NCBI GenBank assembly: GCA_013151445.1
Contig: JAADIG010000136.1
Location: 6,383-70,382, forward strand
Source of the DNA: Actinomycetota bacterium
GTDB taxonomy: Bacteria; Actinomycetota; Acidimicrobiia; Spongiisociales; UBA5794
Reading direction: 5' to 3'
Length of the DNA stretch: 64,000 nt
In this document: in pieces, positions 2,065 through 34,108 of the stretch
Position numbering within the stretch: the stretch's first letter is position 1
Layout of the letters: the number at the start of each line of letters is the position of its first letter
Notes under the pieces: model-generated
The model's input: only the letters and a program-made list of their open reading frames with translations
The model's database searches: none
What the model was told of the DNA's origin: nothing
Made by a program: the position numbers and the translations under genes

Positions 2065-2958
2065 GTGAACACCCCTGCTGCCGAACGAGGCACAGACACC
2101 GTCAAGCGTGGTTTGGCTGAGATGTTGAAGGGTGGCGTCATCATGGACGTCGTCAACGTCGAGCAGGCGAAGATCGCCGAAGCAGCCGGAGCCGTCGCCG
2201 TGATGGCGCTTGAGAGAGTCCCGGCAGATATTCGAGCGGTCGGTGGGGTTGCCCGGATGGCGGACCCGAGCATTGTCGAGGGGATCGTCGCTGCGGTCGA
2301 GATCCCTGTCATGGCGAAATCGCGAATCGGCCACTTTGTTGAAGCCCAGATTCTCGCATCGCTCGGTGTCGATTACATCGACGAGAGCGAGGTGCTGTCA
2401 CCCGTAGATGAGTTCCATATCGACAAGTGGTCGTACGACGTTCCGTTTGTTTGCGGGGCGAAGGATCTTGGTGAAGCACTTCGGCGAATCGGTGAGGGTG
2501 CCGCGATGATCCGGACAAAGGGCGAACCCGGAACCGGCGACGTTGTGGAAGCGGTGCGTCATATGCGCACTATGACCTCCCAGATTCGAGCCCTAACAGT
2601 GCTCGGATCAGATGAGATCATGAGTGCAGCGAAGGACCTGGCCGCACCGTATGCGCTTGTCAAAGAAGTTGCCAGCACCGGCAAGCTTCCGGTCGTGAAC
2701 TTTGCCGCCGGCGGCATCGCAACCCCGGCCGACGCCGCCTTGATGATGCAGCTCGGTTGTGACGGGATCTTTGTAGGGTCCGGAATCTTCAAGTCCGGTG
2801 ACCCCGATGCTCGCGCCAAAGCGATCGTCGAAGCAACCACGTTTTACAAAGACGCCGCCAAGATTGCGAAGGTATCCCGCAACCTGGGTGAGGCAATGGT
2901 GGGCCTCAACATCGATACGTTGAGTCCCCAGGAGCTTATGCAACACCGAGGACTCTGA
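2065..2958 (+). CDS. pdxS: Pyridoxal 5'-phosphate synthase lyase subunit PdxS
   Basis: The translation [18 protein letters not shown]...[23 protein letters not shown] is a PdxS hallmark. GTG 2065 is preceded by AAGGAG (2051-2056). The ORF-track start at 1978 is an upstream extension. Confidence 0.95.
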
Positions 2959-2960
2959 CG

Positions 2961-3566
2961 ATGCCACGTGTTGGGGCGCTTGCGCTTCAAGGCGATTTTC
3001 GTGAACACCTCGCCATGATTGCCGAGCTTGGTGCTGAGGGTGTTGAGGTCCGCACCCCCGAGGAGTTGGACGGGATCGACTGTCTCATCATCCCTGGTGG
3101 AGAGTCGACGGCGATTGCTCGCCTGGCGGTTCGTTACGAGATGATGGAGCCACTGCGCAACAGAATTTTGGATGGCATGCCGGTTCTTGGGACCTGTGCG
3201 GGGATGATCTTTCTCGGTACGGCTACGACCGGCAAACCTCAACCCCAGCTCGGGGTGCTTGATGTGGCCGTTGCGCGTAACGCCTTCGGCCGGCAACAGG
3301 AATCTTTCGAGGCCAACCTCGATGTCAAGGGGTTCGACAGACCGATGCGAGCCGTGTTCATACGGGCCCCGTGGATCGAAAGCGTGGGTCCCGGTGTGGA
3401 TGTGCTGGCCACAGTCTTCGACCCGGTCAGCGGTCGCGAGTTTCCCGTGTTCGTGCGCGCCGGTAACGTCTTAGCGATCTCTTTTCACCCAGAACTGACA
3501 AACGACGCTCGGGTCCACGAATTGTTGCTCTCCCTCGTGGCACCGGGAATTGACGAGGAGCGCTGA
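2961..3566 (+). CDS. pdxT: PLP synthase glutaminase subunit PdxT
   Basis: 201-aa class I glutamine amidotransferase (GTCAGMI nucleophile elbow, FHPEL) immediately after pdxS. Confidence 0.95.
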
Positions 3567-4850: not shown

Positions 4851-5428
4851 TCGGTCGGCTGCGCGGAGTCATCGCCCAAAAGGAGTTCGACACCGTCCTG
4901 GTCGAGGTCGGCGGGGTCGGCTACGTAGTAACCATTCCACCCAAGGTTCACGGTGAATTGCCGGCGGTTGGGTCCGAGGCGGTCCTCCATATCCACACGC
5001 ATGTGCGTGAGGACCAGCTTGCCTTGTACGGTTTCGCGACGGCCGAGCAACGCGACGTGTTTCGGATTCTGATCGCGGTATCCGGTATCGGGCCAAAAGT
5101 AGGGATCGCCATCCTCGGTACTCTCGACGTGTCCAGCCTGCGTCGCGCGGTCGTCACCGACGACGTCGACACCCTCACGACGGTTCCAGGTATCGGGAAG
5201 CGCTCCGCACAGAAACTCCTGATCGAGCTCAAGCCAAAGATGGATCTTCCGGATGCGGAGGTCGTTCCCGGCACCAGTTCCGTGTTAGTCGAGGTACGTG
5301 ACGCACTTGCCGGACTCGGGTACCAGCCTGCTGAGATCAGGTCGGCGGTTGTTGGGTTGCCAGATGAAGGCACTGTTGAGGTGCTCCTCAGATTGGCGCT
5401 ACGAAGTCTCGGAGCCAACAATGCGTGA
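4847..5428 (+). CDS. ruvA: Holliday junction DNA helicase RuvA
   Basis: MIGRLRGV... is the canonical RuvA start, and HhH motifs are present ([16 protein letters not shown]). ATG 4847 overlaps the ruvC stop (ATGA). The ORF-track start at 4799 is an extension. Confidence 0.93.
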
Positions 5429-6473
5429 AGAGGGAATACTGTCGACGGACTCGTTGCCGAGCGACGATGTAGTCGAACTTTCACTTCGCCCGCGGACGCT
5501 CGACGAATTCGTTGGCCAGCACGGTCTGAAGGAACGTCTCGGGATTCTGATCGAGGCGGCTCGAACCCGCAACGAGAGTGTCGACCATCTGCTGTTTTCC
5601 GGTCCGCCCGGACTCGGCAAGACATCGCTGGCATCGATCGTCGCTCACGAAATGGGTGCAAACCTGCGGGCCACATCGGGTCCGGCAATCGAACGGCCCG
5701 GTGACCTTGCGGCGGTCATCACGAACCTTGATCACGGTGATGTACTTTTCATCGACGAGGTGCATCGTCTCCCCCGTCAGGTCGAAGAGGTGCTGTACTC
5801 GGCCATGGAGGATTTCCAGTTGGATATCGTCGTAGGGAAGGGACCCGCGGCCCGATCGATTCGTCTTGATGTTCCCCAGTTCACTCTCGTCGGCGCCACC
5901 ACACGCGTGGGTCGGGTCGCCCCGCCGCTCCGCGACAGGTTCGGGTACATCGCAAGGCTTGACTACTACGACGACGAGTCGTTGGGGTTGATCGTGGAAC
6001 GGGCAGCAAAGATCCTCGGAGTTGTCATCGACTCTGTAAGTGGTCACGTGATCGCGGGCCGCAGCCGAGGTACGCCGCGTATTGCCAATCGACTGCTGCG
6101 TCGTGTTCGTGACTACGCAAGTGTGCGGGCGGAGGGGACCATCGACCCGGAGATTACAGACCTCGCGCTCGGTGTTTTCGAGGTAGATAGCGAGGGGCTC
6201 GACAAGGTCGACCGGTTCATTCTGCGTGCACTCATAGAAAAGTTCGAGGGGGGACCTGTGGGGCTGTCAACACTCGCAATAGCCGTGGGCGAAGAACCCG
6301 AGACAGTGGAGGATGCTTACGAGCCGTTCCTTCTACAGATGGGACTGCTCAAGCGAACGGCACGGGGTCGCGTCGCCACAGCGCGGGCCTATCAGCATCT
6401 CGGTATTGCACCGCCAGACCCAGAGGCAACACCAGTTGCGGACCAGCAGTCCGTGCTGGATTTGCGGGAGTAG
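5421..6473 (+). CDS. ruvB: Holliday junction DNA helicase RuvB
   Basis: [12 protein letters not shown]...[11 protein letters not shown]...FIDEVHRL are AAA+ RuvB motifs. ATG 5421 overlaps the ruvA end by 8 nt. Confidence 0.95.
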
Positions 6474-11617: not shown

Positions 11618-11729
11618 ACTGAGGCCGTGAGCAGCGGATAACCCGGCATGGTGGCACCGGTCTGACGACTGGAAGCAACCGACCCACACAGAGTATTTGT
11701 GCGACGCCCATCAGGAAGGGAGTTCGACC

Positions 11730-13931
11730 GTGGTGACTGACACGTCTATGACGAGCAGGCAGCCGCGTGAGATCCTCGCCTCGGTTGTGTCGCTGTATCG
11801 CCAGCACCACGGCGCCGACGCTGAACGCGACACCCTCGACAGGGCATTCGACCTAGCCGTCGCCGCCCACGAGGGGCAAACCCGACGCACTGGCGAGGAG
11901 TATGTCACTCACCCGCTCGCCGTCGCGGAGATACTCGCCGACTTCGGTATGGACGGTGAAACCCTTGTTGCCGCGTTTCTCCACGACGTCGTCGAAGACA
12001 CCGATGTGACGCTCGACGAGATAGCCGAAAAATTCGGTGATGTCATTGCGGCGCTCATCGACGGTGTCACCAAGCTTGACCGAATCAAGTTTTCCTCGCG
12101 TGAGGAGCAGCAGGCGGCAACGATTCGCAAGATGGCGATCGCAATGTCCCACGATATCCGTGTGCTCATTATCAAACTCGCCGATCGGCTGCACAACATG
12201 CGGACGTTGGGTCCGCTGCCCGAAGAGAAGAAACTTCGCGTCGCACGTGAAACCCTTGATGTGTATGCGCCGCTTGCGAGCCGGCTGGGAGTGCAGGAAG
12301 TCAAACACGAGATGGAGGAGCGCTGTTTCGCAACGCTGTACCCGAAACGTATGGCCGAACTGGACGACCTGGTGCGCAGACGTGCACCGAAACGCGAGCA
12401 GCACATCGAGGACGTCATTGGTGAGCTTACGCACGCACTCGACGAGGCTGGCATCGACGCCGAGATCACGGGCCGTCCGAAGCATCTCTATTCGATCTAC
12501 CGGAAGATGATCTCGTCCGGTCTCGAGTTTGATGACATCCACGACCTCATCGGTGTTCGTGTCCGCGTGAACGACACCCGCGACTGCTACGCAACCCTCG
12601 GGCTAGTACACACGATGTGGAGACCGATCGACGGCCGCTTTAAGGACTACATAGCCACACCAAAGTTCAACCTGTATCAATCGCTTCACACCACGGTGGT
12701 CGGGCCTGATGGCAAGGCGCTCGAGATCCAGATCCGCACGCACGAAATGCACTACATGGCGGAATACGGAATCGCGGCACACTGGCGCTACAAGGAGGGC
12801 ATCACCGCGGCGGCAGACGACTTTGCTGCCGATCTGCTTTCGGTGCAAGAGGAGTCGAGCGATCCAGCCGAGTTTCTCGAGAACCTGAAGCTCGACCTCT
12901 ATCAGGACGAGGTGTTTGCGATAACCCCCGCCGGCAAGGTGCTCACTTTGCCACGAGGCTCAACTCCGGTGGATTTTGCTTACCTGGTGCACACCGACGT
13001 CGGGCATAAATGTGTCGGGGCAAAGGTGAACGGGCGTCTTGTGCCCCTCGCAACGGAGCTCGAGTCCGGCGACATTGTGGAAATCATCACCTCGAAGTCG
13101 AAGGCCGCCCATCCGAGCCGCGACTGGCTGGATTTCGTGCAATCGTCGCGTGCGGCGTCCAAGATTCGTAACTGGTACACGAGGGAGCGCCGCGGTGCGG
13201 CACTCCAGGACGGCAAGGATTTCGTTGCGAAGGCGATCCGTCGCGAGGGGCTTGGTCTGAGCCAGCAGGGCCGCGAGAATCTCCTCAACGAGATCGCAGG
13301 CGACATGGGCTACGACGACGGCGACGCCATGTTCGTTGCGGTCGGTGAGGGTCGGCTTAGTGCCCATACGGTCGCGAACCGGCTGGTGAGGCTGCTTTCG
13401 CCCGAGGAGCCAGACGAACAAGACGAGGACCTGCTGTCGCCACCGGTGCAGCGCAAGGAGCGGCGTCCGCGACGGTCGATCATTGTGGAAGGCATGGACG
13501 ATCTGTTGGTACGCATCGCCCGTTGCTGCGCCCCAGTTCCGGGGGACGAGATTGTTGGATTCGTGACCCTGGGGCGTGGTGTCTCGGTACATCGTGCGGA
13601 CTGTGCGAATGTCAACGCCCTGGGTGAACGCTCGGAACGTTTGATCGACGTGTCCTGGGCGCCCCAGCAAACCGGCTCGTTCTTCGTCTGGGTTCAAGTT
13701 GAGGCGCTTGACCGACCGTGGCTGTTACGCGACGTGACCTCATCGCTGTCATCACTCGGTGCCAACATTCAGGCATCGTCATCGGCGACCGGCCGCGACC
13801 GTGTTGCGGTTCTGCGGTACGAGATCGAGATCAGTGATGCCCAGGCTTTGGATGGGATCGTCAAAGAATTGGCCGCAATCGACGGGGTGTTTGACGCCTA
13901 CCGGCTCGTTCCCCAGGGCGGCACTGACTAG
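11730..13931 (+). CDS. rel: Bifunctional (p)ppGpp synthetase/hydrolase Rel
   Basis: It has an HD hydrolase domain (HPLAVA...HDVVEDT), a RelA/SpoT synthetase region (RPKHLYSIYRKM), and TGS and ACT regions. The start is taken at GTG 11730, 7 nt after GGAAGGGAG. The ORF-track TTG at 11697 is also possible. Confidence 0.93.
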   Translation: MVTDTSMTSRQPREILASVVSLYRQHHGADAERDTLDRAFDLAVAAHEGQTRRTGEEYVTHPLAVAEILADFGMDGETLVAAFLHDVVEDTDVTLDEIAEKFGDVIAALIDGVTKLDRIKFSSREEQQAATIRKMAIAMSHDIRVLIIKLADRLHNMRTLGPLPEEKKLRVARETLDVYAPLASRLGVQEVKHEMEERCFATLYPKRMAELDDLVRRRAPKREQHIEDVIGELTHALDEAGIDAEITGRPKHLYSIYRKMISSGLEFDDIHDLIGVRVRVNDTRDCYATLGLVHTMWRPIDGRFKDYIATPKFNLYQSLHTTVVGPDGKALEIQIRTHEMHYMAEYGIAAHWRYKEGITAAADDFAADLLSVQEESSDPAEFLENLKLDLYQDEVFAITPAGKVLTLPRGSTPVDFAYLVHTDVGHKCVGAKVNGRLVPLATELESGDIVEIITSKSKAAHPSRDWLDFVQSSRAASKIRNWYTRERRGAALQDGKDFVAKAIRREGLGLSQQGRENLLNEIAGDMGYDDGDAMFVAVGEGRLSAHTVANRLVRLLSPEEPDEQDEDLLSPPVQRKERRPRRSIIVEGMDDLLVRIARCCAPVPGDEIVGFVTLGRGVSVHRADCANVNALGERSERLIDVSWAPQQTGSFFVWVQVEALDRPWLLRDVTSSLSSLGANIQASSSATGRDRVAVLRYEIEISDAQALDGIVKELAAIDGVFDAYRLVPQGGTD

Positions 13932-14102
13932 CGCTACCGCAGTCTTGGGAGTCGCTTTGGCAGCCTCCACGACGAGCAGCAGCAACGTGTGAAGGTCGCT
14001 GTGGACTAGTGCGTTGGGTAGTTACTTCGGTCAACGCACAATGGCGCTCCGTACGGACCGCCATTCCTCAAGAAAACGGCCGAATTTGCCGACACTTACA
14101 TC

Positions 14103-15680
14103 ATGGCAACACTTGAGGACCGACTCCGCGTCCACATGAAGCGCGGCGAGGGTGGATTCACCATCGTCGAATCCATGATGGCTGCGGGAATTCTGCTTGT
14201 CGCGATTGTGCTGACGATTACACCGTTGGCCATCTCGATGCGGACGATCGACCGCGCCAAAGACACGACGGTTGCCGAGAACATTGCCCAGGCGCGCATC
14301 GAAGAGGTACGCTCCCTGGCCTACGACGACGTCGGTAACGTTGGATTCGCCCCCGATGGAATTCTGGCTCGCAGCGAGACACGAAACGTCTCGGGACGCG
14401 ACTACACGGTCGAAACTACGGTCGCCTACGTCGGCAGTCTGACGGGTTTGAACGTCGTTGCCCAGGGCGGTGACGGTGTCGAAGGTACCTACGACCTGGG
14501 TGTCAACTACAAGTCCATCGTTGTGACGGTGTCACCTGTCGTCGGCTCTGCGAAACCGGTCACGATGGAGACGATCGTGTCTCCGCCGACCATCGGTGCA
14601 CTCGAGAACGTCGCAGTCGTTCAGATAGACCTCGACCTTTATGAACCCTACGGCTCGTATGGAGATCCCGCACCCCTCGTGCAGATCACCGGGCCGAACA
14701 CCTACGTCTCCTCCACCGCAGCTCTCACGCAGTACTTCGCCGGTGTTGACCTGGGTACCTACACGATTCAAACGTTTGGTTCCACCGACTGGCTCGTCGA
14801 TCCTGTATCTATTTCAAGCGGGGCGACCTCGGTCGATGCAATTGGCGGCTGGAATGCCAAGCGGACCGTTCGTCTCTACCAGCCGGCGTCGTTGACGATG
14901 ACGGTTACTGACAAGGACACCGGACTCCCGATCACGGACGCGGCGCTGACTGTGCTGAACGTGTCATCGGGTTGGTCCTACACCGGTTCACCCGGTGAGT
15001 ACGGCTTCTCCGACCTCGTACCCGACCTGTACCGAGTGACTGCGGCCACCTCGGGGTATGCCACCAGCTTCGTGGACCTCGATGTTCCCGGTTTGGGTGG
15101 CGGGACGTCTGCCAGTGGGACGATAGAGCTCGAAGCCCAGTCCTTTACCGGCGTCGACTATGTGTTCACTGTGAACTATGTCGGTTGGAACAGCTATGTG
15201 ATCAACGGTGCCAAGGTCGAAGTTGTCCACCCGACGCTCGGCTCCTGGATCGGCTACACCGATGAATATGGCAAGGTCACGCTCAACATTCCGGCCAGCA
15301 CCGGGAGTCTCACCGCAACAGCATCAACACCATGGGGTCACGGCAACGCGGTGTGGAACTTTACGTCCGGTTCAGGGGGTCGGAGTAAGACGCTCAAGGT
15401 CAGCAAGCCTGGCGGTACCGATCGATTCCGGATCCGGTCCGGACCGGTAGGTCCGGACGGGTTCTTCGAGTACCGCCTCGGCGGGTCGAGCGGTACATGG
15501 GTGAGGATCCCTGCGAACTATCTCGGCAAAGTCACGTTCATCCTGGATGAGAACTACGGGCAGCTCGTTGAGATGAAGGCTTTCTGTGATGTGACGGACT
15601 ATCCGGGCTCCGCGTTGAGCAGCACCAGCACGACCCTCAACAACCGCAACAAGACTTGGCGCGTGAGTGGATCATGTTGA
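14103..15680 (+). CDS. Large prepilin-type (PilV-like) minor pilin with C-terminal beta-sandwich repeats
   Basis: It has a class III signal ...KRGEGG|FTIVESMMAAGILLVAIVL, with G at -1, F at +1 and E at +5. The rest of the 525-aa protein contains repeats resembling carboxypeptidase-regulatory-like domains (TVTDKDTGLPITDAALTV...GEYGFSDLVPDLYRV). The start could also be ATG 14136. Confidence 0.7.
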   Translation: MATLEDRLRVHMKRGEGGFTIVESMMAAGILLVAIVLTITPLAISMRTIDRAKDTTVAENIAQARIEEVRSLAYDDVGNVGFAPDGILARSETRNVSGRDYTVETTVAYVGSLTGLNVVAQGGDGVEGTYDLGVNYKSIVVTVSPVVGSAKPVTMETIVSPPTIGALENVAVVQIDLDLYEPYGSYGDPAPLVQITGPNTYVSSTAALTQYFAGVDLGTYTIQTFGSTDWLVDPVSISSGATSVDAIGGWNAKRTVRLYQPASLTMTVTDKDTGLPITDAALTVLNVSSGWSYTGSPGEYGFSDLVPDLYRVTAATSGYATSFVDLDVPGLGGGTSASGTIELEAQSFTGVDYVFTVNYVGWNSYVINGAKVEVVHPTLGSWIGYTDEYGKVTLNIPASTGSLTATASTPWGHGNAVWNFTSGSGGRSKTLKVSKPGGTDRFRIRSGPVGPDGFFEYRLGGSSGTWVRIPANYLGKVTFILDENYGQLVEMKAFCDVTDYPGSALSSTSTTLNNRNKTWRVSGSC

Positions 15681-16345
15681 CGACTCTCACGAGACGTTTG
15701 CGATCCAACGACCAGGGCATGACCCTGCCCGAGGTCACGGTCGCGACGATGATCACCCTCATGGTATCGGCCGCCTTTTTCACAGTGTTCATGGCGTTTA
15801 ACCGCAACGTACAGCTTGCGGATCAAAGGGCTTCGACACTGCGCGACATCCGTCCCGTGATTGCACAGATGCTATTGGAGCTTCGCCAGGCGACCGATAT
15901 CGATGGTGACGGCGCCATTATCGAGAAGCTCGACTCATCGTGGAGTTCACTCGATCTCATTTTCTACTCGGATAGACGTCCCGACATCGAAGGGCCCGAG
16001 CGGTATCGGTATTACCTTACGAATTGTGCGAACAACATCTGCGATTTTGTCCATGAGGTCCTACCGGCGGACGCGGGCTCGGGTCCAAACTGGACGTATG
16101 ACAACAACACGCCGGCAGAGAGAACATTGATCAGCAATGTTGTTGCTTCCGGGGGTGCGTTGCTCATCGGTGTTTCGTGGAACACCGGGTCCGAGATACT
16201 GACGACTTCGTGCGGAGGTGCGACGAGGTGCGATTTTGATGTCGTTCGTATTGACTTGCGCATCGACCCTGACCCGGAAACGGGAACGCTTGCCGCACTA
16301 CAGATTCGAGAAGACGTGAGGCTGCGCAATGGCAAACGACTCTAA
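15674..16345 (+). CDS. Prepilin-type (PilW-like) minor pilin
   Basis: ...RSNDQG|MTLPEVTVATMITLMVSAAFF has G at -1 and E at +5, followed by a hydrophobic helix. ATG 15674 overlaps the upstream stop by 7 nt (ATGTTGA). Confidence 0.65.
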   Translation: MLTTLTRRLRSNDQGMTLPEVTVATMITLMVSAAFFTVFMAFNRNVQLADQRASTLRDIRPVIAQMLLELRQATDIDGDGAIIEKLDSSWSSLDLIFYSDRRPDIEGPERYRYYLTNCANNICDFVHEVLPADAGSGPNWTYDNNTPAERTLISNVVASGGALLIGVSWNTGSEILTTSCGGATRCDFDVVRIDLRIDPDPETGTLAALQIREDVRLRNGKRL

Positions 16346-17939
16346 ACTCCGTCAACTTTACGGGGACGAAAAGGGAGTCGCGATGGCAATTGTCGTGATG
16401 GGCATGCTCGCGATCATTCTGATGACGGTGATGATCCAGTCGCTCGCCACTTCCCAGCTCAACCAGGCCGACTACTTCAAGCGCGAGGACACTGTTTTGG
16501 CCGGTACGGAGGCCATGCTTGAGCGTTATGCGACGAAGCTTTCGATCGACCCCCTCTACTACCAGCGGTACGTCGATGAAGCCGAAGCTCCGAGGGTGTG
16601 TTCGGATACAACATCGACCGGGTATAACACGACGGTGCTCCCGGGCAACAACTGGATCAGCACATGTGCCACGTGGGACTACGTGGAGACCACCAACTTC
16701 TACGCCCATCCGCTCTTGGCCGGTGATGCGTCGACCACTGAGGATGACATCGCCGTGCTGCTACGTGTCACGCCTCCGATGGACGGCAAACAGGTCGAGG
16801 TAACCGTCGTCGGTCGCCAGGCCGGACGCTTGAACCCCCGAGTCGTGACATCAGAGATTCGCGCAACGGCGATCTCCGAGTTCGTACGAATGGTCGAGAA
16901 TGATCTTCGGTACGGCGGAGGCGCCAAAACGTTCGGCAAGGTCTACGTCGGGGGGAATATCGGGTATCGGACGGGTGGAGAGGCCTATGCCGATGTGTAC
17001 GCCGAGAACAGCATCGGGTTCTATTCCTACGGCGAGTGGTATGGACCGCCCACGTGGAAGAACGGGGCCGAGGGTTACGACTCGACGGGGAACAACAATG
17101 CGGCAGGGGAGTACGTGACGGACTACTACCCCGATCCGATCGACTTCGATCGTTTCTGGGACGATCTCGGTTTGCTCGAACGCGCAGCATGCGACGGAGG
17201 TGGCCTCTGTCTGGACCCGGCCTACAACAGCAGTATCCCGACGGGCGTTGACGCCTACCTGGTCGAGAGCGTGAACACCACCGGACAGCCCACGCGTCTG
17301 AAGATTTCGTATGCGACGAGCCCGCCGTCCGCCAACTACTGCGACGGTGCCGAGTCGTCGTGGACAAAGTATTCCCAGAACGCTTCGTGGACCTATCTCG
17401 GCACGTTTGACCTCCCCGTGAACGGGGCCGTGTGGGCGAACGAACACATCGTGATCGGACGGAACAGCACCGCACCCTTCGTGATGAACGGGATCGTTTC
17501 GTTCTATGCCGGCAACTCATCGAGCCGCCGCAACGTCATCATTGCGTCCGATATCACCTATGGCAGTGCCCTTACCGGCAATGACATCGTTGGTCTCATC
17601 GGGTCGGATGAGGTGTGGATCAACCCAACAAGCGTCGGCACCGACCGGGAACTCAACATCTACGCGGCGATCCTCAATCAGAACGGGCAACTGAAGGCGG
17701 CGACGGCCTGCAATGGATCGCGCATCAATCTGTCGAACAGTGAACTCAACATGTTCGGCTCCAACGCATCGCTTGGTACCGGAAACATGTCATGCTGTTT
17801 CACACCTCGCAATTACAACTTCGATCCCCGCCTTGACCGTTTGCGCCCTCCGTTCTTTCCACTGTTGAGCGACGAATGGACCTACACCAACTGGCGGGAG
17901 ACACCAACACCGTGTTGGGCGAAACCCGGCGGTTGTTGA
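16329..17939 (+). CDS. PilX_N-like pilus assembly / putative tip protein
   Basis: The N-terminus GDEKGVAMAIVVMGMLAIILMTVMIQSL resembles the PilX N-terminal domain and has no E5. The 536-aa protein continues with a G/N-rich, beta-helix-like central part and a Cys-containing C-terminus. It overlaps the upstream gene by 17 nt. Confidence 0.6.
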   Translation: MANDSKLRQLYGDEKGVAMAIVVMGMLAIILMTVMIQSLATSQLNQADYFKREDTVLAGTEAMLERYATKLSIDPLYYQRYVDEAEAPRVCSDTTSTGYNTTVLPGNNWISTCATWDYVETTNFYAHPLLAGDASTTEDDIAVLLRVTPPMDGKQVEVTVVGRQAGRLNPRVVTSEIRATAISEFVRMVENDLRYGGGAKTFGKVYVGGNIGYRTGGEAYADVYAENSIGFYSYGEWYGPPTWKNGAEGYDSTGNNNAAGEYVTDYYPDPIDFDRFWDDLGLLERAACDGGGLCLDPAYNSSIPTGVDAYLVESVNTTGQPTRLKISYATSPPSANYCDGAESSWTKYSQNASWTYLGTFDLPVNGAVWANEHIVIGRNSTAPFVMNGIVSFYAGNSSSRRNVIIASDITYGSALTGNDIVGLIGSDEVWINPTSVGTDRELNIYAAILNQNGQLKAATACNGSRINLSNSELNMFGSNASLGTGNMSCCFTPRNYNFDPRLDRLRPPFFPLLSDEWTYTNWRETPTPCWAKPGGC

Positions 17940-18035
17940 TGACGGTGCAGTAAGGGAATCGCGCCGTCCCGGGCGAGTTGGTCCGAGCGGTGGGATAACG
18001 CTGAGCGCTGCCCAGTGTCGGGTAGGCTTGTGTGT

Positions 18036-18707
18036 ATGAGTTTGGTCATCGAAGGGCGATCCCTGTGGGTCGCCCAAACCAATTGTTATGTTGTGGCAGC
18101 GGAGCGTGGCGGTCCGGGCATCGTGATCGACGCCCCACCGGATGCCGACGCTATCGGAGCGTTGCTTGCATCGTTAGATATCACGCCGGTCGCATTGCTC
18201 GTGACCCACGGCCACATCGATCACGCTGGCGGTTCCGACAAGGTCGCCCGTGCCCATCCCGGGGTTGTCACCTACTTACATCCCGACGACGCCTTCCTCT
18301 ATCGGGACCCGGCGAGCACCCTTGAGCGTCTGATGGGTACCGTGGGTGACGTCGAGGAGATCAATCGTGAGTTCGGTGCACCCGAACAGCTCACGGAACT
18401 CGCCGACGGTCAACGACTCGAGCTTGCAGGTATCGAAATAGACGTCCTTCACACCCCCGGTCACACTCCCGGGCATTGTTGTTTCTCGGTACCTTCCGAG
18501 GGGCTGCTGTTTAGCGGTGACCAACTGTTCGCCGGGTCTATCGGCCGCACCGATCTCCCCGGAGGCAACACCGAGCAACTCATCGCCTCGATGGTGTCAC
18601 ACGTGCTGCCGCTCGCTGACGACGTTGATGTGTTGCCGGGACACGGGCCGGCGACCACGATTGGTCAAGAACGGGTGGCGAATCCCTTTCTGCAAGGTCT
18701 CGCCTAG
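18036..18707 (+). CDS. MBL-fold metallo-hydrolase (glyoxalase II-like)
   Basis: It carries the THGHIDHAGG (HxHxDH) motif and HTPGHTPGH, and lies upstream of hisS as in other actinobacteria. The start is either ATG 18036 or GTG 18015. Confidence 0.85.
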   Translation: MSLVIEGRSLWVAQTNCYVVAAERGGPGIVIDAPPDADAIGALLASLDITPVALLVTHGHIDHAGGSDKVARAHPGVVTYLHPDDAFLYRDPASTLERLMGTVGDVEEINREFGAPEQLTELADGQRLELAGIEIDVLHTPGHTPGHCCFSVPSEGLLFSGDQLFAGSIGRTDLPGGNTEQLIASMVSHVLPLADDVDVLPGHGPATTIGQERVANPFLQGLA

Positions 18708-19936
18708 TGGATATTCGGGCACCAAAGGGCACCGACGACATCCTTCCACCGGAGTCGCATCTCTGGCGGCACGCAGTAACGACCTTTGACAATCTTGCCC
18801 AGCGATACGGATATGGGTTGACACTTACACCGCTGTTCGAGCAGACGGAGTTGTTCGCCCGCGGTGTCGGCGAAGACACCGAGGTCGTCGAGAAGCAGAT
18901 GTACACGTTCGCCGATCGCAAGGGTCGATCATTGACGCTGCGACCGGAGGCCACCGCATCCGTGGTTCGTGCATACCTCTCAGGTGGCGGCGACGGTGTG
19001 TTCAAGGGTTCGTACTCCGGTCCGATGTTTCGCTACGAGCGGCCCCAGAAGGGTCGTCGGCGTCAGTTCTATCAGGTCGGGGTGGAGTACATCGGAGAGG
19101 CAGGACCCTTTGCCGATGTTGAGGTCATTGAACTCGGTTATCGATATCTTCAGGAAATGGGTGTTCCCGATGTGGCCGTTCAGCTGAACTCGATCGGTGA
19201 CGTGGCGGACCGTCAGACGTTTCGCACGGTCCTGCAGGAGTGGCTCCGAGAGCGCCAGGAGTTGTTGTCTCCGGATGCTCGCCGACGCATCGAGGGCAAC
19301 CCCATGAGGGTCCTTGACTCCAAGGCCGACACCGAAGTGACCGCGGATGCGCCGACACCGGCAGAGTTTCTCGGGAGTGATTCGGCGGCTCACTTTGCGG
19401 TAGTTCGATCCGGACTTGAGCGCATCGGCATCCCGTATGTGATCGAGCCGAGGCTTGTCCGCGGACTCGACTATTACAACCGTACGGTCTTTGAGTATGT
19501 ACCCCGTCAATACGGAGCTGCCCAAAGCGCTGTCGGTGGGGGAGGGCGCTACGACGGTCTTGCTGAAGTGCTCGGTGGGCGACCGACGCCCGGTGTTGGG
19601 CTGGCAATGGGTCTCGATCGAATCTTGCTCGCTAGTGACGGGGTGGACCTGGGTCCACTGCTCGATGCTTTCATCGTTGTCGCCGAACCCGGGAATACAT
19701 CAGATGCCGTGGGTCTCGCCAGCCGTCTTCGACTCGAGGGCTGGCGGATCGATATCGACCCTGGTGGTCGCAGCGTGAAGGCACAGTTTAGGAAAGCTGA
19801 CAAGAAGGACGCTCGAGCGGCAATCGTTGTCGGCACGGAGTGGGTAGACAACGAAGTCGTCGTGCGCGATCTCGCTCGTGGTGTTCAAGAGGTCATCCCC
19901 GTTGAGGAGATTGGGCAATGGTTAACCAACCGCTGA
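18707..19936 (+). CDS. hisS: Histidine--tRNA ligase
   Basis: KGTDDILP, MYTFADRKGRSLTLRPE and GGGGRYDGL are class II HisRS motifs. The product is 409 aa. Confidence 0.95.
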   Translation: MDIRAPKGTDDILPPESHLWRHAVTTFDNLAQRYGYGLTLTPLFEQTELFARGVGEDTEVVEKQMYTFADRKGRSLTLRPEATASVVRAYLSGGGDGVFKGSYSGPMFRYERPQKGRRRQFYQVGVEYIGEAGPFADVEVIELGYRYLQEMGVPDVAVQLNSIGDVADRQTFRTVLQEWLRERQELLSPDARRRIEGNPMRVLDSKADTEVTADAPTPAEFLGSDSAAHFAVVRSGLERIGIPYVIEPRLVRGLDYYNRTVFEYVPRQYGAAQSAVGGGGRYDGLAEVLGGRPTPGVGLAMGLDRILLASDGVDLGPLLDAFIVVAEPGNTSDAVGLASRLRLEGWRIDIDPGGRSVKAQFRKADKKDARAAIVVGTEWVDNEVVVRDLARGVQEVIPVEEIGQWLTNR

Positions 19937-28846: not shown

Positions 28847-30523
28847 GTGCCGAGCGACGCCCGCCATTTGGGCACCATGCTTTTGGAAGAGGGTCTTCTT
28901 AGCCGAGAGCAGCTCGATCAGGCGATTGAGACACAACAGACCTCTGGCGTTCCGTTGGGTCGCGTCCTGGTGGAGGAAGGCTTCGTTCTTGAGGCCGATC
29001 TTGTCCGCACCCTTGCCACCCAGATCGGCATCGGGTATGTCGATCTAAGCGAAGAGCAAATCGATCCGGCCGCGGTTGCCGCCGTGCCGGAATACTTGCA
29101 AGATCGTTACACGGTGCTCCCCATCGGCTACGAAGATGGGCGCCTCGTCTGCGCCATGGCCGACCCTGCGAATGTTCTTGCAATCGACGACCTCAGAGCC
29201 GTGACTGGTTTGGATATCGTGACCAAGGTCGCAACTCGTTCCGACCTTGAAGAAGCGATCCGCAGACAGTCGACGTTTGACGAATCGGTCTCCGACCTCG
29301 CCGACCTCGCCGCGGAAGAAGAGGGTGATGTTGATCTGGGCGGTCTCGAGATCGCCGCGGAAGAGGCACCTGTTGTCAAGCTGTTGAATACGCTGATCTC
29401 GCGGGCCGTCAACGAACGAGCATCAGACATTCATATCGAGCCAGGGGAGAAAGACCTTCGCATCCGGTTCCGTATCGATGGTGTCCTCCACGAGGTCATG
29501 CGGACCCCCCGGTCAATTTCCAACGCCGTCGTGTCACGTATCAAGATCATGTCCGACCTCAATATCGCCGAACGCCGGGTACCCCAGGACGGACGCATTT
29601 CATTGCGTGTATCGGGCAAGGCCATCGACCTTCGTACCGCAACGCTGCCCTCGATCTATGGCGAAAAAGTCGTCATGCGTATCCTCGACAAATCTGCCGG
29701 CGTCGCCCCTCTCGCCGACCTCGGTTTTGAACCCTACAACCTCGAACGCTTCAAGGAGGCGTACGAGAAACCCTATGGTGCGATCCTGGTCACCGGTCCG
29801 ACAGGGTCCGGAAAGACAACCACCCTGTACTCGACGCTTGACATCCTCAATAAGGAGGAGGTCAATATCATCACGGTGGAAGATCCGGTCGAATATCGAT
29901 TGAATGGGATCACCCAGGTCCAGGTCAACCGCAAGGCCGGCTTGCTCTTTGCAACGGCCCTCAAGTCGATTCTACGTGCCGACCCGGACGTCATCCTGAT
30001 CGGCGAGATCCGCGACGGGGAAACTGCCGCGATCGCCATCGAATCGGCACTCACCGGGCACCTCGTGCTGTCTACATTGCACACGAACGATGCCGCCTCG
30101 TCGGTCGGGCGCCTCATCGACATGGGTGTGGAGCCCTTCCTCGTGGCATCTGCCCTCGACTGCGTGTTGGCTCAGCGCCTTGCTCGGGTTCTCTGTGAGA
30201 AGTGTAAAAAGAAGGATTCTGCGATTACGGCAGCGATGCTCAAGGACGTTGGTTGGGATGAGGAGCTCCATGGGGACCCCAATGTGTACACCAAGGTTGG
30301 TTGCAAGGCGTGCTCCATGACGGGGTACAAGGGCCGTGTGAGCCTCACCGAGGTGATGCTGGTCAACGAAGAGATTCAACGCCTGATTGTCGATCGTACT
30401 TCCGCTGAGGTCATTGAGAGGGCAGCGTTTGCCTCAGGAATGCGATCCCTGCGCGACGACGGTTTCGCCAAGATCTCTCGTGGCATGACGACGTTCGAAG
30501 AGATCCTAAGGGTTGTCGCCTAA
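28847..30523 (+). CDS. pilB: Type IV pilus assembly ATPase PilB (GspE family)
   Basis: 558-aa ORF with an N-terminal T2SSE_N/MshEN-like tandem motif, Walker A VTGPTGSGKTTT, DVILIGEIRD, the His box TGHLVLSTLHTN, and the tetracysteine CEKC...CKAC typical of assembly ATPases. Confidence 0.92.
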   Translation: MPSDARHLGTMLLEEGLLSREQLDQAIETQQTSGVPLGRVLVEEGFVLEADLVRTLATQIGIGYVDLSEEQIDPAAVAAVPEYLQDRYTVLPIGYEDGRLVCAMADPANVLAIDDLRAVTGLDIVTKVATRSDLEEAIRRQSTFDESVSDLADLAAEEEGDVDLGGLEIAAEEAPVVKLLNTLISRAVNERASDIHIEPGEKDLRIRFRIDGVLHEVMRTPRSISNAVVSRIKIMSDLNIAERRVPQDGRISLRVSGKAIDLRTATLPSIYGEKVVMRILDKSAGVAPLADLGFEPYNLERFKEAYEKPYGAILVTGPTGSGKTTTLYSTLDILNKEEVNIITVEDPVEYRLNGITQVQVNRKAGLLFATALKSILRADPDVILIGEIRDGETAAIAIESALTGHLVLSTLHTNDAASSVGRLIDMGVEPFLVASALDCVLAQRLARVLCEKCKKKDSAITAAMLKDVGWDEELHGDPNVYTKVGCKACSMTGYKGRVSLTEVMLVNEEIQRLIVDRTSAEVIERAAFASGMRSLRDDGFAKISRGMTTFEEILRVVA

Positions 30524-30567
30524 AACGCCGATATTCACGACATGCGAAGCAGGGAGCACGTCTCGAC

Positions 30568-32187
30568 ATGGACACAGTCGATAGGGAACTAGGAGAAATC
30601 CTGGTTGACCGTAGATTGCTGACGCGCGATAGGCTTGAGGAGCATCTCCTCACGGTTGCTTCGTCAGGGACTCCACTGCCCCAGATCCTTGTTGAGGAGG
30701 GCGACGTCTCCGACCGCGATATCCTCGTTTCGGTAGCGGAGCGCCTCAAGGTACGGTTCGTGGACCTCGATGGCCCGGAACGTGTCTTCCCGGATCCGGC
30801 GGCTCTTCGCAAGCTCTCCGCCGACCTCGCACAAGAACTTCAGGTACTCCCGATCGAGATTGAGGAAAGTGGAGCTCTCGTCATCGCTGTCGACGACCCG
30901 CTCGACGAAAAGAGGGCCGAACTGGTCCGCCAAGCAGTCGGCCGCAATATCACGGTTGCACTCGCTTCACGCTCCCTGATCCAGGCCAGCATCGCCCCGG
31001 CCTACCTGGGTCTGAACATTGGATCGTCGCTCGGCGATGCGGCACAAGAGGGCACTACTCGTCAAGAAGTCCGTGAACCAATCACCGCCGATCTCGGTGG
31101 TGCCGCGGTTATCAAGGATCGCCCCCACGTCAATGATCTGCTGCGAGAACTCGTGGAACGGGGAGGGTCGGACCTTCACCTCACCGCCGGTTCGCCACCT
31201 CAGGTGCGCATCAACGGTTCGCTCTACCCGGTCGATGGGTTCGGCCTCCTGAAGCCTGCCCCATTGCGTTCGATGATCTATGAGATTCTCACTGGCCGCC
31301 AGCGCGAGGAGCTCGAAGAGACACGGGAGCTCGACGCCTCACATCCTGTGCCCGGCATCGGCCGTTTCCGTGTCAACGTATTCTTCCAACGAGACGCAGT
31401 AGCGTCCGTGATGCGTGCCATTCCGAACGAGGTGTACTCCCTTGAGGAATTGGGTATGCCTGAAATTGTTCGTGAGTTCGCGACGTACCAGCGCGGCCTC
31501 GTTTTGGTGACGGGACCGACGGGTTCCGGCAAGAGCACGACACTCGCATCAGTCATTGACCTCATCAACTCGTCGCGTGCCGACCACATCATCACTGTGG
31601 AAGATCCGATCGAGTTCACCCACCGCCACAAGATGTCGGTCGTCAACCAGCGAGAAGTTGGGACCGACACCATGAGCTTTGCGTCGGCTCTCAAACACGC
31701 TCTCCGTCAGGATCCCGATGTCATCCTCGTTGGTGAGCTTCGTGACCTCGAAACAATCGCGACGGCGATTACCGCGGCCGAGACAGGCCACTTGGTGTTC
31801 GCAACGCTCCACACCCAGGACGCTCCGAAATCTATCGAGCGAATCATCGACGTGTTCCCCCCACACCAGCAACAGCAGGTCCGGGTGCAGCTCGCCAGTT
31901 CGCTCCAAGCGGTGGTGAGCCAGCAGTTGTTGCGGACCAAGGATGGTACTGGGCGGGCCGCTGCGATCGAAGTGATGGTCGCGACGGCGGCGATCCGCAA
32001 CCTCATTCGAGAGGGCAAGGTCCATCAGATCGCATCGGCCATGCAGGCTGGTGGACGGTTTGGGATGCAAACCATGGATGCCGCGCTTGCGGAACTTGTC
32101 CGGAGAGGCACCGTAACGGAGACGCTCGCTCGCGAACGGTGCCAGGACCCTGATGTCTTTGACGCAATCATGCAAGGAGCCATGTGA
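30568..32187 (+). CDS. pilT: PilT-type retraction ATPase with extra N-terminal T2SSE_N/MshEN-like domain
   Basis: Residues ~186-539 form a PilT core with VTGPTGSGKSTT, ILVGELRD, TGHLVFATLHTQD and the PilT signature AIRNLIREGK. Residues 1-~145 resemble the GspE N-terminal domain (LGEILVDRRLL...RFVDLD...LPIEIEE..LVIAVDDP). Confidence 0.9.
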   Translation: MDTVDRELGEILVDRRLLTRDRLEEHLLTVASSGTPLPQILVEEGDVSDRDILVSVAERLKVRFVDLDGPERVFPDPAALRKLSADLAQELQVLPIEIEESGALVIAVDDPLDEKRAELVRQAVGRNITVALASRSLIQASIAPAYLGLNIGSSLGDAAQEGTTRQEVREPITADLGGAAVIKDRPHVNDLLRELVERGGSDLHLTAGSPPQVRINGSLYPVDGFGLLKPAPLRSMIYEILTGRQREELEETRELDASHPVPGIGRFRVNVFFQRDAVASVMRAIPNEVYSLEELGMPEIVREFATYQRGLVLVTGPTGSGKSTTLASVIDLINSSRADHIITVEDPIEFTHRHKMSVVNQREVGTDTMSFASALKHALRQDPDVILVGELRDLETIATAITAAETGHLVFATLHTQDAPKSIERIIDVFPPHQQQQVRVQLASSLQAVVSQQLLRTKDGTGRAAAIEVMVATAAIRNLIREGKVHQIASAMQAGGRFGMQTMDAALAELVRRGTVTETLARERCQDPDVFDAIMQGAM

Positions 32188-33410
32188 TGGCAGCAACGTT
32201 CGCTTACAAGGTTCGTGACAAACAAGGTCAGATCAGGACCGGCAAGATTGAGGGCCAATCACAGAGCCTGGTAGTCAAGTCGTTGCGCGAAAAGGGGCTG
32301 ACCCCGCTCTCTGTCGAGGAGCAGAAGAACTCCGCTCTGCAGATGGAGATCAAGATTCCGGGTCTCTCGGACCGGGTCAAGGCGAAGGACGTCGTGTTGT
32401 TCTCCCGTCAGTTTGCGACCATGGTCAATTCCGGATTGTCACTGATCCGAGCTCTCTCAGTCCTTGTCGATCAGACAGAGTCGTCGGCATTGGCGCTTGT
32501 TATCCGCACCGTGCGATCGGATGTCGAAAAGGGGACGTCACTCTCCCAGGCCATGGAGAAACATCCGAAGGTGTTCGGTGAACTCTACGTCGCAATGATC
32601 AAGGCCGGTGAAGTCGGTGGTGTTCTCGACGAGACCCTTGAACGTCTTGCTGACATGTTGGAAGCGAACCTCAACCTCCGGTCGAAGATCAAATCCGCCA
32701 TGGCGTACCCGATCGTCGTTGGTGTTTTGATTCTGTTTGTCACGACCGCGATGATCGTGTTCGTAGTTCCGATCTTTGCAGACATGTATGACGAGATGGG
32801 AGGAGGGGCCGCGCTCCCGGCACCCACCCTCGTGCTTGTCGCTTTGTCGAACATCATGACATCGTATTGGTGGGCCCTGATTCTTGGGACCGTCGGGTCT
32901 GTCTTAGGGTTCCGCAAGTGGAAAAGCACCGAATCTGGTCGGTACTACTGGGACACGATAAAGCTGAAGATTCCGGTGTTTGGAAAGCTTGCCCACAAAA
33001 CCTCGCTTTCGCGTTTCGCGCGAACCTTCGCAGTGCTCAGCCGCACCGGCGTACCGATTCTCCAGGCGATCGACATCGTCTCTGCCACGTCGGGAAATCG
33101 CAAGATGTCGCGGGCACTCGAAGATGTCAAGGCATCGGTACGCGATGGTGAGTCGCTCGCCGAACCACTTTCCCGGCACGACATCTTCCCCCCGATGGTC
33201 GTCCAGATGATGACTGTCGGTGAAGAGACCGGGGCACTCGATGCGATGCTCGGGAAGGTTTCCGACTTTTATAATCGCGAGGTTGACGACATGGTGAGCG
33301 CACTCACAAGCCTCATCGAGCCGCTGCTCATCGTCGTGATGGGCATCACCGTCGGGGGCATTCTGATAGCCCTCTACCTTCCGATCTTCAACCTCGCGGC
33401 GATCGTGTAA
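32187..33410 (+). CDS. pilC: Type IV pilus platform protein PilC (GspF family)
   Basis: ~407-aa polytopic protein with two GspF repeats (FSRQFATMVNSGLSL.RAL; FARTFAVLSRTGVPILQA). AAGGAG lies 7 nt before ATG 32187, which overlaps the pilT stop. GTG 32184 is also possible. Confidence 0.92.
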   Translation: MAATFAYKVRDKQGQIRTGKIEGQSQSLVVKSLREKGLTPLSVEEQKNSALQMEIKIPGLSDRVKAKDVVLFSRQFATMVNSGLSLIRALSVLVDQTESSALALVIRTVRSDVEKGTSLSQAMEKHPKVFGELYVAMIKAGEVGGVLDETLERLADMLEANLNLRSKIKSAMAYPIVVGVLILFVTTAMIVFVVPIFADMYDEMGGGAALPAPTLVLVALSNIMTSYWWALILGTVGSVLGFRKWKSTESGRYYWDTIKLKIPVFGKLAHKTSLSRFARTFAVLSRTGVPILQAIDIVSATSGNRKMSRALEDVKASVRDGESLAEPLSRHDIFPPMVVQMMTVGEETGALDAMLGKVSDFYNREVDDMVSALTSLIEPLLIVVMGITVGGILIALYLPIFNLAAIV

Positions 33411-33607
33411 CAACCTGACAGAGCCGTCCGGTTCGCCGAGGCGGCACCAAGGGTTGACGGATGCTTCGCTGGTTCCGCGACTGGCGCTCCGCCTGGACGT
33501 GGCAGTGAGAAATCGCTCAACTATTTTCCCCCATTCGCCGATGGAAACAGCACGGGTGAGTGATATTCACCGCCCCGTAATCTCATTATCTACATGGAGG
33601 TTTGCAT

Positions 33608-34108
33608 ATGCGTTGGATGCGCGAGCGTCTCGACAAAGAAGAGGGTTTCACCCTCATTGAGCTGATGGTTGTAGTGCTTATCATTGCAATTCTTGTTGCT
33701 ATTGCCATCCCGTCGTTCCTGGGTTTCCGCAGTCGTGCACAGGACCGTGCGGTCCAAGCCGAAGTGCGTAACGTTCTTCTCGCTGAGAAGGGTTACTGGG
33801 TTGACAACACGTCGTTCACGACGGTGCAGGCCGACCTGAAGGCATTCGAGTCGAGCATCGTCCTGGATGTCAGTACAACCTCCGCTGTCGAAGAGGGTGT
33901 TGTAGTCACGATGCCCGTTTCGTCGAACAACAACGTTGTGTGTCTCACGCGGACTAGCGATTCCGGCAACATCTTCGCGATCTTCGAAGACTCGTCAGCG
34001 ACCGGTGGTACGTTCTACAGGGCCGTAGCTTCAGGCAGCACACTTGCCTGCCCAACATCCGCAGGAGCACCCACTGGCTGGGTGACCGGCGGCTTCCCGA
34101 CTCCATAG
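33608..34108 (+). CDS. pilA: Type IV major pilin PilA
   Basis: The leader and cleavage site are MRWMRERLDKEEG|FTLIELMVVVLIIAILVAIAIPSF, a textbook class III signal with E5. Two C-terminal Cys residues form a D-region-like pair. GGAGG (33596-33600) lies 7 nt upstream of the ATG. Confidence 0.88.
   Translation: MRWMRERLDKEEGFTLIELMVVVLIIAILVAIAIPSFLGFRSRAQDRAVQAEVRNVLLAEKGYWVDNTSFTTVQADLKAFESSIVLDVSTTSAVEEGVVVTMPVSSNNNVVCLTRTSDSGNIFAIFEDSSATGGTFYRAVASGSTLACPTSAGAPTGWVTGGFPTP

Follow-up and report, generated by a model that had tools for sequence, protein, structure and literature searches.

Introduction

Two described pilus systems come close to the locus reported here. In Thermus thermophilus, pilA1-pilA2-pilA3-comZ-pilA4 (PDB 6QVI; PMC6561018) encodes, beside small minor pilins, ComZ, a pilin-like protein of ~550 amino acids (aa) that lacks canonical motifs and carries a β-solenoid whose closest structural relative is an ice-binding protein. 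ComZ is proposed to form a complex with a minor pilin at the tip of the pilus, sterically fits at the tip only, and is not recognized as a pilin by PilFind (PMC6561018). In cyanobacterial PilV/PilW/PilX sets, HpsB/HpsC/HpsA among them, a triangular, ice-binding-like β-solenoid is inserted in the PilX pilin fold and has been suggested to plug the tip in place of PilY1; PilV and PilX subfamilies of these sets co-occur (bioRxiv 10.64898/2026.02.12.705559). Here, we analysed 64,000 nucleotides (henceforth the window; positions 6,383 to 70,382 of contig JAADIG010000136.1, GenBank assembly GCA_013151445.1) from an actinobacterium of the class Acidimicrobiia. Three overlapping open reading frames, ORF1 to ORF3 (14103-17939; henceforth the triad), most likely encode the core minor-pilin priming and tip complex, akin to GspI/J/K or PilV/W/X, of a type IVa pilus whose machinery is encoded 11 kb downstream.

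How does the triad compare with these systems? ORF3 has the traits listed above for ComZ, that is, its size, lack of canonical motifs, predicted ice-binding-related solenoid and proximity to minor-pilin genes, and its proposed position is likewise the tip. Yet the two share no detectable sequence similarity and give low structural alignment scores, and the host belongs to a monoderm lineage of actinobacteria rather than to Deinococcota. Instead of four minor pilins and ComZ, the triad comprises three genes that lie 11 kb from the machinery and not beside the major pilin gene, and ORF1 carries about four extra β-sandwich domains. As for the cyanobacterial sets, ORF1 weakly matches HpsB and ORF2 HpsC, but far below the equivalog cut-offs and over the N-terminal helix only. 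The triad further differs from them in phylum, in the single set found in the region examined (rather than two specialized ones), and in its large, modular PilV-like subunit.

The tip of the type II secretion system (T2SS) pseudopilus offers a third comparison. As this tip is portrayed in the two papers that cite Korotkov and Hol 2008 (PMC6561018, PMC8179133), GspI, GspJ and GspK are encoded by three consecutive genes in I-J-K order, the order found here, and the proposal is that their trimer caps the filament and primes its assembly. Like ORF3, GspK is the third and large member and lacks Glu5; it contains an inserted domain that according to the same accounts is α-helical, whereas the putative insert of ORF3 is a predicted β-solenoid. 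A GspH equivalent, a secretin or other T2SS parts are absent from our locus and, since its machinery includes PilT, we take it to specify a retractile type IVa pilus rather than a T2SS. Finally, ORF1 is reminiscent of modular pilins such as Streptococcus sanguinis PilB and PilC or CofB of enterotoxigenic Escherichia coli, the last being the nearest parallel, in which a pilin module is joined to bulky modules that can be accommodated at the tip only (PMC8179133). The modules of ORF1 are CarboxypepD_reg/CnaB-like sandwiches in place of the von Willebrand factor A or lectin domains of those proteins.

The design itself is not new, with the Thermus locus and the cyanobacterial PilX sets as close analogues, and the novelty claimed in the initial annotation of this DNA needs trimming on this account (PMC6561018; bioRxiv 10.64898/2026.02.12.705559). 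Its narrower statement, that nothing comparable has been characterized for an actinobacterial type IVa pilus, agrees with a 2019 review according to which the type IV pili studied experimentally in Actinobacteria are all of the Tad type (type IVc; PMC6916266). What is new is the phylum, the heavily modular PilV-like subunit, the presence of several triad types in one slot, the repeated joint loss of triad and pilus genes, and an arrangement in which triad and machinery share one conserved backbone yet stand 11 kb of housekeeping genes apart. We liken the triad to known tip sets and, because profile matches were missing or below threshold, do not claim sequence-level membership in the ComZ, PilX_N, GspI or GspJ families.

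Gene structure of the triad

In agreement with the initial annotation, the three genes lie on the forward strand and overlap. ORF1 (14103-15680; 525 aa) is a candidate modular minor pilin of the PilV/GspI/HpsB class, ORF2 (15674-16345; 223 aa when read from its ATG) a candidate minor pilin of the PilW/GspJ/HpsC class, and ORF3 (16329-17939; 536 aa) a candidate tip pilin of the PilX/GspK/ComZ class. ORF1 and ORF2 share 7 nt (15674-15680), ORF2 and ORF3 17 nt (16329-16345). A TTG codon at 15656 would extend ORF2 to 229 aa (15656-16345); however, since homologues begin at the position of the ATG at 15674, we set the start there. The hexamers just 5′ of the start codons of ORF2 (GAGTGG) and ORF3 (GTGAGG) may be read as Shine-Dalgarno-like. 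Tens to >100 full-length homologues were found for each triad ORF, and we therefore consider all three to be real genes. Their closest relatives stem from a hydrothermal-vent metagenome contig (98-99% identity) and from 'bacterium BMS3Bbin02', and its alaS neighbours assign the organism to the Acidimicrobiia. The triad is flanked upstream by rel (11697-13931) and downstream by a gene for a metallo-β-lactamase (MBL)-fold hydrolase (18015-18707), with hisS and aspS next in line. ORF3 and pilB are separated by 10.9 kb, as the initial annotation had put it (~11 kb), with alaS in between.

Prepilin features of ORF1 and ORF2

The class III signals noted initially are present and conserved across the respective protein families. 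ORF1 carries GEGG↓FTIVE (G18↓F19, E23; the arrow denotes the cleavage position expected from the motif) and ORF2 carries DQG↓MTLPE (G15↓M16, E20), each followed by a hydrophobic helix. Among ORF1 relatives (alignments of 28 and 30), E23 is invariant and G18 and F19 nearly so; among 15 relatives of ORF2, E20 is invariant and G15 nearly invariant. The Glu and the preceding Gly are retained in this manner in relatives down to 29% identity. In a six-frame motif scan of the window, ORF1, ORF2 and the candidate major pilin PilA were the only three proteins with convincing, canonical class III signals. At the family level, the Pfam N_methyl profile (E<=0.1) matched 15/28 ORF1 and 9/15 ORF2 relatives, with best E-values of 4.8e-6 and 1.4e-5, respectively.

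To which pilin classes might the two proteins belong? NCBIfam comparisons of the ORF1 family returned HpsB (25/28), XpsI, a GspI protein (22/28), ComGE (18/28), GspI (14/28) and PilV (12/28), and those of the ORF2 family HpsC (9/15), PRK10557 (8/15) and GspJ (2/15), all of them below cut-off; for the window proteins, these matches are confined to the first 50-55 residues after the leader. A profile of the ORF2 family searched against the PDB likewise hit pilin N-terminal helices only. With no equivalog match above cut-off, we treat the assignment of ORF1 to the GspI/PilV class and of ORF2 to the GspJ/PilW class as a lead that is supported by gene order; for ORF2, the prepilin signal and the weak class-specific matches point the same way.

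Downstream of its helix, ORF1 departs from an ordinary pilin. The AlphaFold2 (AF2) model (mean predicted local distance difference test score, pLDDT, of 83.2) comprises a helix (residues 20-70), a four-stranded sheet (91-159) and then some four tandem β-sandwich domains (roughly 171-259, 262-343, 350-434 and 439-520), in agreement with the at least three repeats noted initially. Pfam CarboxypepD_reg matches residues 264-324 of the window protein at 31.2 bits, just below the 32.3-bit cut-off, and 27/28 relatives (best E 2.2e-17; E<=0.1), many of which also match SdrD_B or SpaA prealbumin-like domains. Foldseek retrieved tandem immunoglobulin (Ig)-like stalks, namely the Bacillus anthracis TIE protein (E 1.5e-14), sortase pilins and SdrD B domains. 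Given the N-terminal class matches, the helix and sheet, and the β-sandwich stalk, ORF1 is best modelled as a modular pilin, that is, a PilV/GspI-class pilin module followed by a stalk.

Cysteines are conserved in all three triad proteins. In ORF1, C495 and C525 are invariant in both alignments and lie in the last β-sandwich domain; in ORF2, C123, C180 and C186 are invariant among the 15 relatives and C118 nearly so. Together with the fast divergence of the triad proteins described below, these cysteines would be in line with an extracellular location, and we count them in favour of a pilus-tip complex.

A separate feature of ORF1 is a Gly/Asp-rich loop at residues ~116-137 (14448-14513), Q-G-G-D-G-V-E-G-x-[FY]-D-x-G-V-N-Y-K, whose positions are invariant or nearly so in the family. 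It coincides with the lowest-confidence part of the model (pLDDT <50) and is deleted in the homologue from locus L003; it may be a metal-binding or subunit-contact loop.

ORF3 and its similarity to ComZ

The N-terminus of ORF3, EKG↓VAMAI, consists of G16 and the hydrophobic segment VAMAIVVMGML, with no acidic residue at +5. G16, A18 and V22 are nearly invariant in the family alignment. A hydrophobic N-terminal segment without Glu5 and a β-helix-like region had been anticipated in the initial annotation, and the AF2 model (pLDDT 88.3; predicted template modelling score, pTM, 0.80) indeed shows a helix (5-73), strands (141-181), a solenoid of short strands (185-481) and a final long strand (512-525). 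As far as strand order goes, and only in this respect, the model fits a large domain inserted in a pilin sheet, just as the solenoid of ComZ sits between the penultimate and last strands.

Foldseek comparison of the ORF3 model with the PDB yielded three ComZ chains as the sole significant matches (6qvi C, A and B; E 6e-7 to 8e-6, probability 1.0), aligned over ~580 columns at 13-14% identity. The next matches were ice-binding β-solenoid proteins (E >=0.05). ORF3 and ComZ thus share the same relatives, as the same kinship to ice-binding proteins was reported for ComZ (PMC6561018). Because no sequence match was found and identity is as low as 13-14%, the predicted structure speaks for a ComZ-like architecture rather than for demonstrated membership in the ComZ family.

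ORF3 itself matched no Pfam (E<=1) or NCBIfam family, and among 36 relatives the Pfam ice-binding-like adhesive domain was weakly matched in three. A profile of the family found 1959 proteins at E<=1e-3 in a representative library, and on this count the ORF3 family appears large and mostly unannotated. Database names vary: a 99% identical protein is called 'PilX N-terminal domain-containing' in UniRef, and IMG labels some relatives 'FlaG/FlaF archaellin'. One distant relative, P0174, lies on a 1.8-kb contig that provides no neighbour context.

The pilus cluster and a proposed mechanism

Pfam and NCBIfam confirmed a type IVa pilus cluster at 28847-38057, all on the forward strand, with PilB, PilT, PilC, PilA, PilD and PilMNO all found in the window. 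The extension ATPase gene pilB (28847-30523) encodes a T2SSE domain (472 bits in Pfam) and an N-terminal, cyclic di-GMP (c-di-GMP)-binding MshEN domain; in NCBIfam, it scored 633 bits for PilB, below the equivalog cut-off of 676, and 63.6 bits for the c-di-GMP motif (cut-off 38). It is followed by a pilT-family retraction ATPase gene (30568-32187; TIGR01420 pilT_fam 488.6 bits over residues 188-528, cut-off 319), the platform protein gene pilC (32184-33410; two T2SSF repeats, 230 bits in Pfam) and pilA for the candidate major pilin (33602-34108; 168 aa), which bears the signal EEG↓FTLIE and exceeds the cut-offs of both Pfam N_methyl (33.3 bits) and NCBIfam IV_pilin_GFxxxE (28.5 bits). The prepilin peptidase gene pilD (34248-35027; Pfam A24_N_bact and Peptidase_A24) precedes pilM, pilN and pilO (Pfam PilM_2, PilN and PilO), which together with a 172-aa ORF make up the region of the alignment subcomplex (35162-38057). 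No secretin is encoded in the cluster, which fits a monoderm lineage. A PilY1-type family was absent from the 33 window ORFs scanned with Pfam (positions 14 to 42006), as had been noted initially.

These components allow for the following scenario. All three triad proteins would enter the membrane via their N-terminal helices. PilD, which presumably processes ORF1, ORF2 and PilA, and perhaps ORF3 as well, would cut ORF1 after Gly18 and ORF2 after Gly15. Devoid of Glu5, as are GspK-class tip pilins, ORF3 would occupy the topmost position of a heterotrimeric cap that ORF1-3 may form on the PilC/PilMNO platform. This cap would prime the PilB-driven polymerization of PilA and then remain at the filament tip, displaying the ComZ-like solenoid of ORF3 and the ORF1 stalk of about four β-sandwich domains as the ligand-binding end, until PilT retracts the filament. 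By analogy with cyanobacterial PilX, the ORF3 solenoid probably serves as the tip plug in place of the missing PilY1.

What might such a tip bind? The ligand could be DNA, as for ComZ, a surface, a polysaccharide or another cell. A more specific version of the tip-complex reading would make the triad the tip of a DNA-uptake organelle, either a pilus or a short pseudopilus made by the same machinery, in which ORF3 would receive the DNA, a role that has been put forward for ComZ-PilA2 in Thermus. ComZ, to which ORF3 alone showed significant structural similarity, binds both DNA and PilA2, and competence but not piliation depends on it (PMC6561018), and a PilT-family ATPase is at hand for retraction. 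Yet, in the lack of sequence similarity, the DNA-binding lysines of ComZ cannot be mapped on ORF3, family scans of window ORFs revealed none of comEA, comEC and dprA, and solenoid PilX proteins of cyanobacteria belong to competence and to motility/adhesion sets alike. Also, the long Ig-like stalk of ORF1 resembles the stalks of adhesins, for which reason we rate adhesion to surfaces, polysaccharide or other cells at least as likely as DNA binding. On balance, we regard the DNA receptor as a rather doubtful specification of what remains, in our view, a minor-pilin tip complex.

Three observations concern the pilus genes themselves. The PilT-family ATPase is, at 539 aa, endowed with an MshEN-like N-terminal domain (residues 73-146), as is PilB, although its c-di-GMP motif scores 30.3 bits and thus below the cut-off of 38; such an extension on PilT is unusual and hints that c-di-GMP might control both extension and retraction. 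The 172-aa ORF (37539-38057) shares 4 nt (37539-37542) with the 3′ end of pilO and matched no Pfam or NCBIfam family; from its position, it could be a further component of the alignment complex, either PilP-like or lineage-specific. Lastly, the number of major pilins varies between lineages, as several relatives (L006, L037, L044, L045 and L051) possess two tandem pilA-like genes downstream of pilC compared with one in the window.

Distribution of the triad and the pilus genes

To survey related loci, we anchored 80 genome and 80 metagenome loci (numbered with the prefix L) on alaS with 10-kb flanks and mapped the window proteins onto them by tblastn, scoring joint presence or absence at two syntenic slots: the triad slot between rel and the MBL-fold gene, and the pilus slot between aroE and aroC. 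Homologous triads occupy the former in relatives down to 32-50% ORF3 identity (L001, L002, L165). Window-type triad proteins retain 28-50% identity compared with 55-68% for the flanking genes, and hence diverge faster. In most Acidimicrobiia, by contrast, rel and the MBL-fold gene are just 8-104 bp apart, and these loci are also devoid of pilB, pilT, pilC and pilA between aroE and aroC.

Does the triad go with the pilus genes? Seven de-duplicated informative loci plus the window contain both the triad and pilB/pilC, 35 contain neither, and no discordant locus exists at the syntenic slots. Fisher's test on the table 7, 1, 0, 35 gave p = 2.5e-7 without correction for phylogeny, and p would decrease further if the L003 cell were removed. 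This single entry of 'triad present, pilus absent' was discarded as an artefact: in L003, the flanks run the opposite way, such that the region downstream of alaS falls outside the locus.

On a rough neighbour-joining (NJ) tree of alaS, pilus genes are found in the outgroup Actinomycetes and on deeper branches of the Acidimicrobiia, and the state with neither triad nor pilus occurs in at least three separate places. Because of this pattern, the triad looks ancestral and seems to have been lost repeatedly, jointly with the pilus genes, rather than inserted into a fixed backbone as initially supposed.

Among the loci without pilus genes, L011, L017, L022 and L056 have wider gaps at the triad slot, and no pilin-like ORF was found in these gaps. 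That of L056 holds (2075-3493) a 472-aa protein with N-terminal signal-peptide-like hydrophobic and Thr-rich segments that is not pilin-like and unrelated to the triad. A PilD-like gene that is 29-51% identical to the window PilD is kept between aroE and aroC in L005, L007, L011, L014-L023 and many other loci that lack both pilus genes and triad. Since this gene stays after the loss of pilus and triad, another substrate or role of PilD must persist in these genomes.

Three triad types in one slot

In two sets of loci (L006/L089 and L012/L046/L087/L037), tblastn found no ORF1-3 homologue despite the presence of pilus genes (L046 and L089 do not cover the downstream pilus slot). Here, too, the slot contains three co-oriented ORFs that overlap or lie a few bases apart. 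In L006 and L089 (type C), they encode proteins of 178 aa (G↓FTIVE), ~172 aa (G↓LTLVE) and ~470 aa (G↓LAMASVV, no Glu5); in L012, L046, L087 and L037 (type B), the products measure ~613 aa (G↓FTIVE or G↓FSILE), 208-211 aa (G↓LTLPE, G↓VTLTE or G↓LTLTE) and 494-503 aa (G↓IGIVTA or G↓IGIMTA, no Glu5). The PilV-like member hence ranges from a plain pilin of 178 aa up to a modular protein of ~613 aa. In BLASTP against the window-type families, most type B and C proteins align over their first 60-120 residues only, with top matches in the family of the same-position ORF; the exception is ORF2 of L037, which aligns over ~200 residues at 28% identity. A profile comparison of the third proteins with the ORF3 family returned a probability of 38%. 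The ORF2 equivalents of the two other types surpass the Pfam N_methyl cut-off (25.1 and 35.6 bits vs 21.2). On the alaS tree, triad types are non-monophyletic.

With three triad types occupying it, each with position-specific N-terminal helices, the slot behaves like a constant site whose tip set changes. We tentatively go one step further and propose, as a possibility that we hold somewhat short of probable, that the rel-MBL slot is a swappable tip-specificity cassette of the Acidimicrobiia pilus. The basis for this is the conservation of position and class-specific N-terminal helices alongside at least three non-aligning sets of head domains, one inversion, and joint loss on at least three occasions. 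If true, this would point to a pilus tip under strong pressure to diversify or be replaced, exerted for instance by pilus-specific phages or by changes of substrate or partner, and a solenoid PilX combined with an Ig-stalk PilV would represent a PilY1-free tip solution in a third phylum.

The inversion concerns L003 (7811-11593; GCA_041619515.1), where the whole triad is turned around relative to rel and the MBL-fold gene, which are themselves in the usual order. Apparently, exactly this unit of three genes was inverted.

Could the triad instead have arrived by horizontal transfer, as an accessory island or mobile adhesin cassette that happened to insert between rel and the MBL-fold gene? The close spacing of these two genes in most Acidimicrobiia species representatives, the three mutually non-aligning triad types and the inverted triad of L003 would all be compatible with such an origin. 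However, base composition is flat over the region and the GC content as well as the GC content at third codon positions (GC3; 0.66-0.74 in the triad) equal those of adjoining genes. Genes for an integrase, a transposase or tRNAs are missing, as are convincing flanking repeats; the repeats that do occur are short and chance-like. Occupancy of the slot in deeper lineages of the alaS tree, with pilus genes present in the outgroup, is better explained by loss than by gain, and the N-terminal helix that each ORF of types B and C shares with its same-position counterpart in the window argues for divergence or replacement in place. Considering in particular the flat composition, the neighbour-like GC3 and the nature of the repeats, we rejected a mobile island as the main explanation and deem it very improbable.

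Weighing the tip-complex assignment

Taken together, four independent lines, namely the conserved prepilin residues, the class matches that follow gene order, the match of ORF3 to ComZ and the co-presence of triad and pilus genes, unbroken in our sample, support the priming and tip complex that the initial annotation had suggested. Several results nonetheless weigh against it. In the window itself, ORF1 and ORF2 scored 11.0 and 16.6 bits, respectively, with Pfam N_methyl (PF07963; cut-off 21.2), and the prepilin signal 14.3 bits with NCBIfam TIGR02532 (cut-off 16.3). Foldseek with ORF1 yielded no pilin match, the stalk domains dominating the search. The PilX_N-like character ascribed to ORF3 by the initial annotation was not borne out, in that the Pfam profile matched neither ORF3 nor, at E<=0.1, any of its 36 relatives, and on present models the PilX assignment would rest on fold and position rather than on this profile. 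Nor did a profile of the 36 relatives retrieve any PDB sequence at E<=10, ComZ included, and the template-modelling (TM) scores of 0.25-0.30 between ORF3 and ComZ (root-mean-square deviation of ~15 Å) denote likeness of fold type and not a tight superposition. The loci scored for joint presence or absence are phylogenetically non-independent, the alaS tree was built by NJ from one gene and carries no support values, and the sequencing runs that hold triad sequence are DNA metagenomes only.

Some of these points might be taken to mean that the prepilin likeness is superficial and that the triad encodes membrane-anchored surface or cell-wall proteins, such as S-layer proteins or adhesins with an uncleaved helix, that have nothing to do with the pilus. 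Besides the sub-threshold prepilin scores of the window proteins, the archaellin label that IMG attaches to some ORF3 relatives, weak matches of 5/28 ORF1 relatives to an anammox S-layer glycoprotein model, and the 11 kb between triad and pilus genes could be cited in its favour. We give this explanation very little credence: Gly-1 and Glu+5 are conserved over deep divergence, the triad is present or absent together with pilB, pilT, pilC and pilA without exception in our sample, ORF3 matches ComZ, and same-slot proteins of other lineages do exceed the N_methyl cut-off. Minor pilins of a tip complex therefore remain by far our preferred interpretation of the triad.

Implications

The triad is the first candidate for the tip complex of a type IVa pilus in Actinobacteria and would extend an architecture in which a solenoid PilX takes the place of PilY1 from Thermus and cyanobacteria to uncultured Acidimicrobiia of hydrothermal and marine origin. 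Its occurrence in a third lineage suggests that the solenoid PilX design is old and widespread. Should ORF3 resemble ComZ in binding DNA, natural competence would be predicted for these uncultured lineages. The variation in triad type at one slot, along with repeated joint loss, provides a natural experiment on tip recognition. On a practical note, annotation can be corrected for proteins that are currently labelled 'hypothetical', 'PulG' or 'FlaG/FlaF archaellin'.

Further features of the window

Scans of 13800-18200 for regulatory signals were of little help. No sigma-70-like promoter was detected, a result that is uninformative on co-transcription for an actinobacterium, and the count of terminators was at the level of shuffled controls. 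The 171-bp spacer between rel and ORF1 does contain a 26-bp palindrome (14040-14065; AATGGCGCTCCGTACGGACCGCCATT; 94% complementary), 38 bp 5′ of the ORF1 start. It could be an operator, although its belonging to the triad system is speculative.

The backbone around the triad is subject to local rearrangements, as the position of hisS differs between loci: in the window, the gene (18707-19936) follows directly after the MBL-fold gene, whereas in L001 (15548-17073) and L165 (15520-17086) it comes after mgsA and an ORF of 63-67 aa. Further upstream in the window, between ruvC and queA, a 246-aa ORF on the opposite strand (4948-5688, reverse) has no Pfam match and a GC3 of 0.60, below the values of adjacent genes, and may therefore not be genuine.

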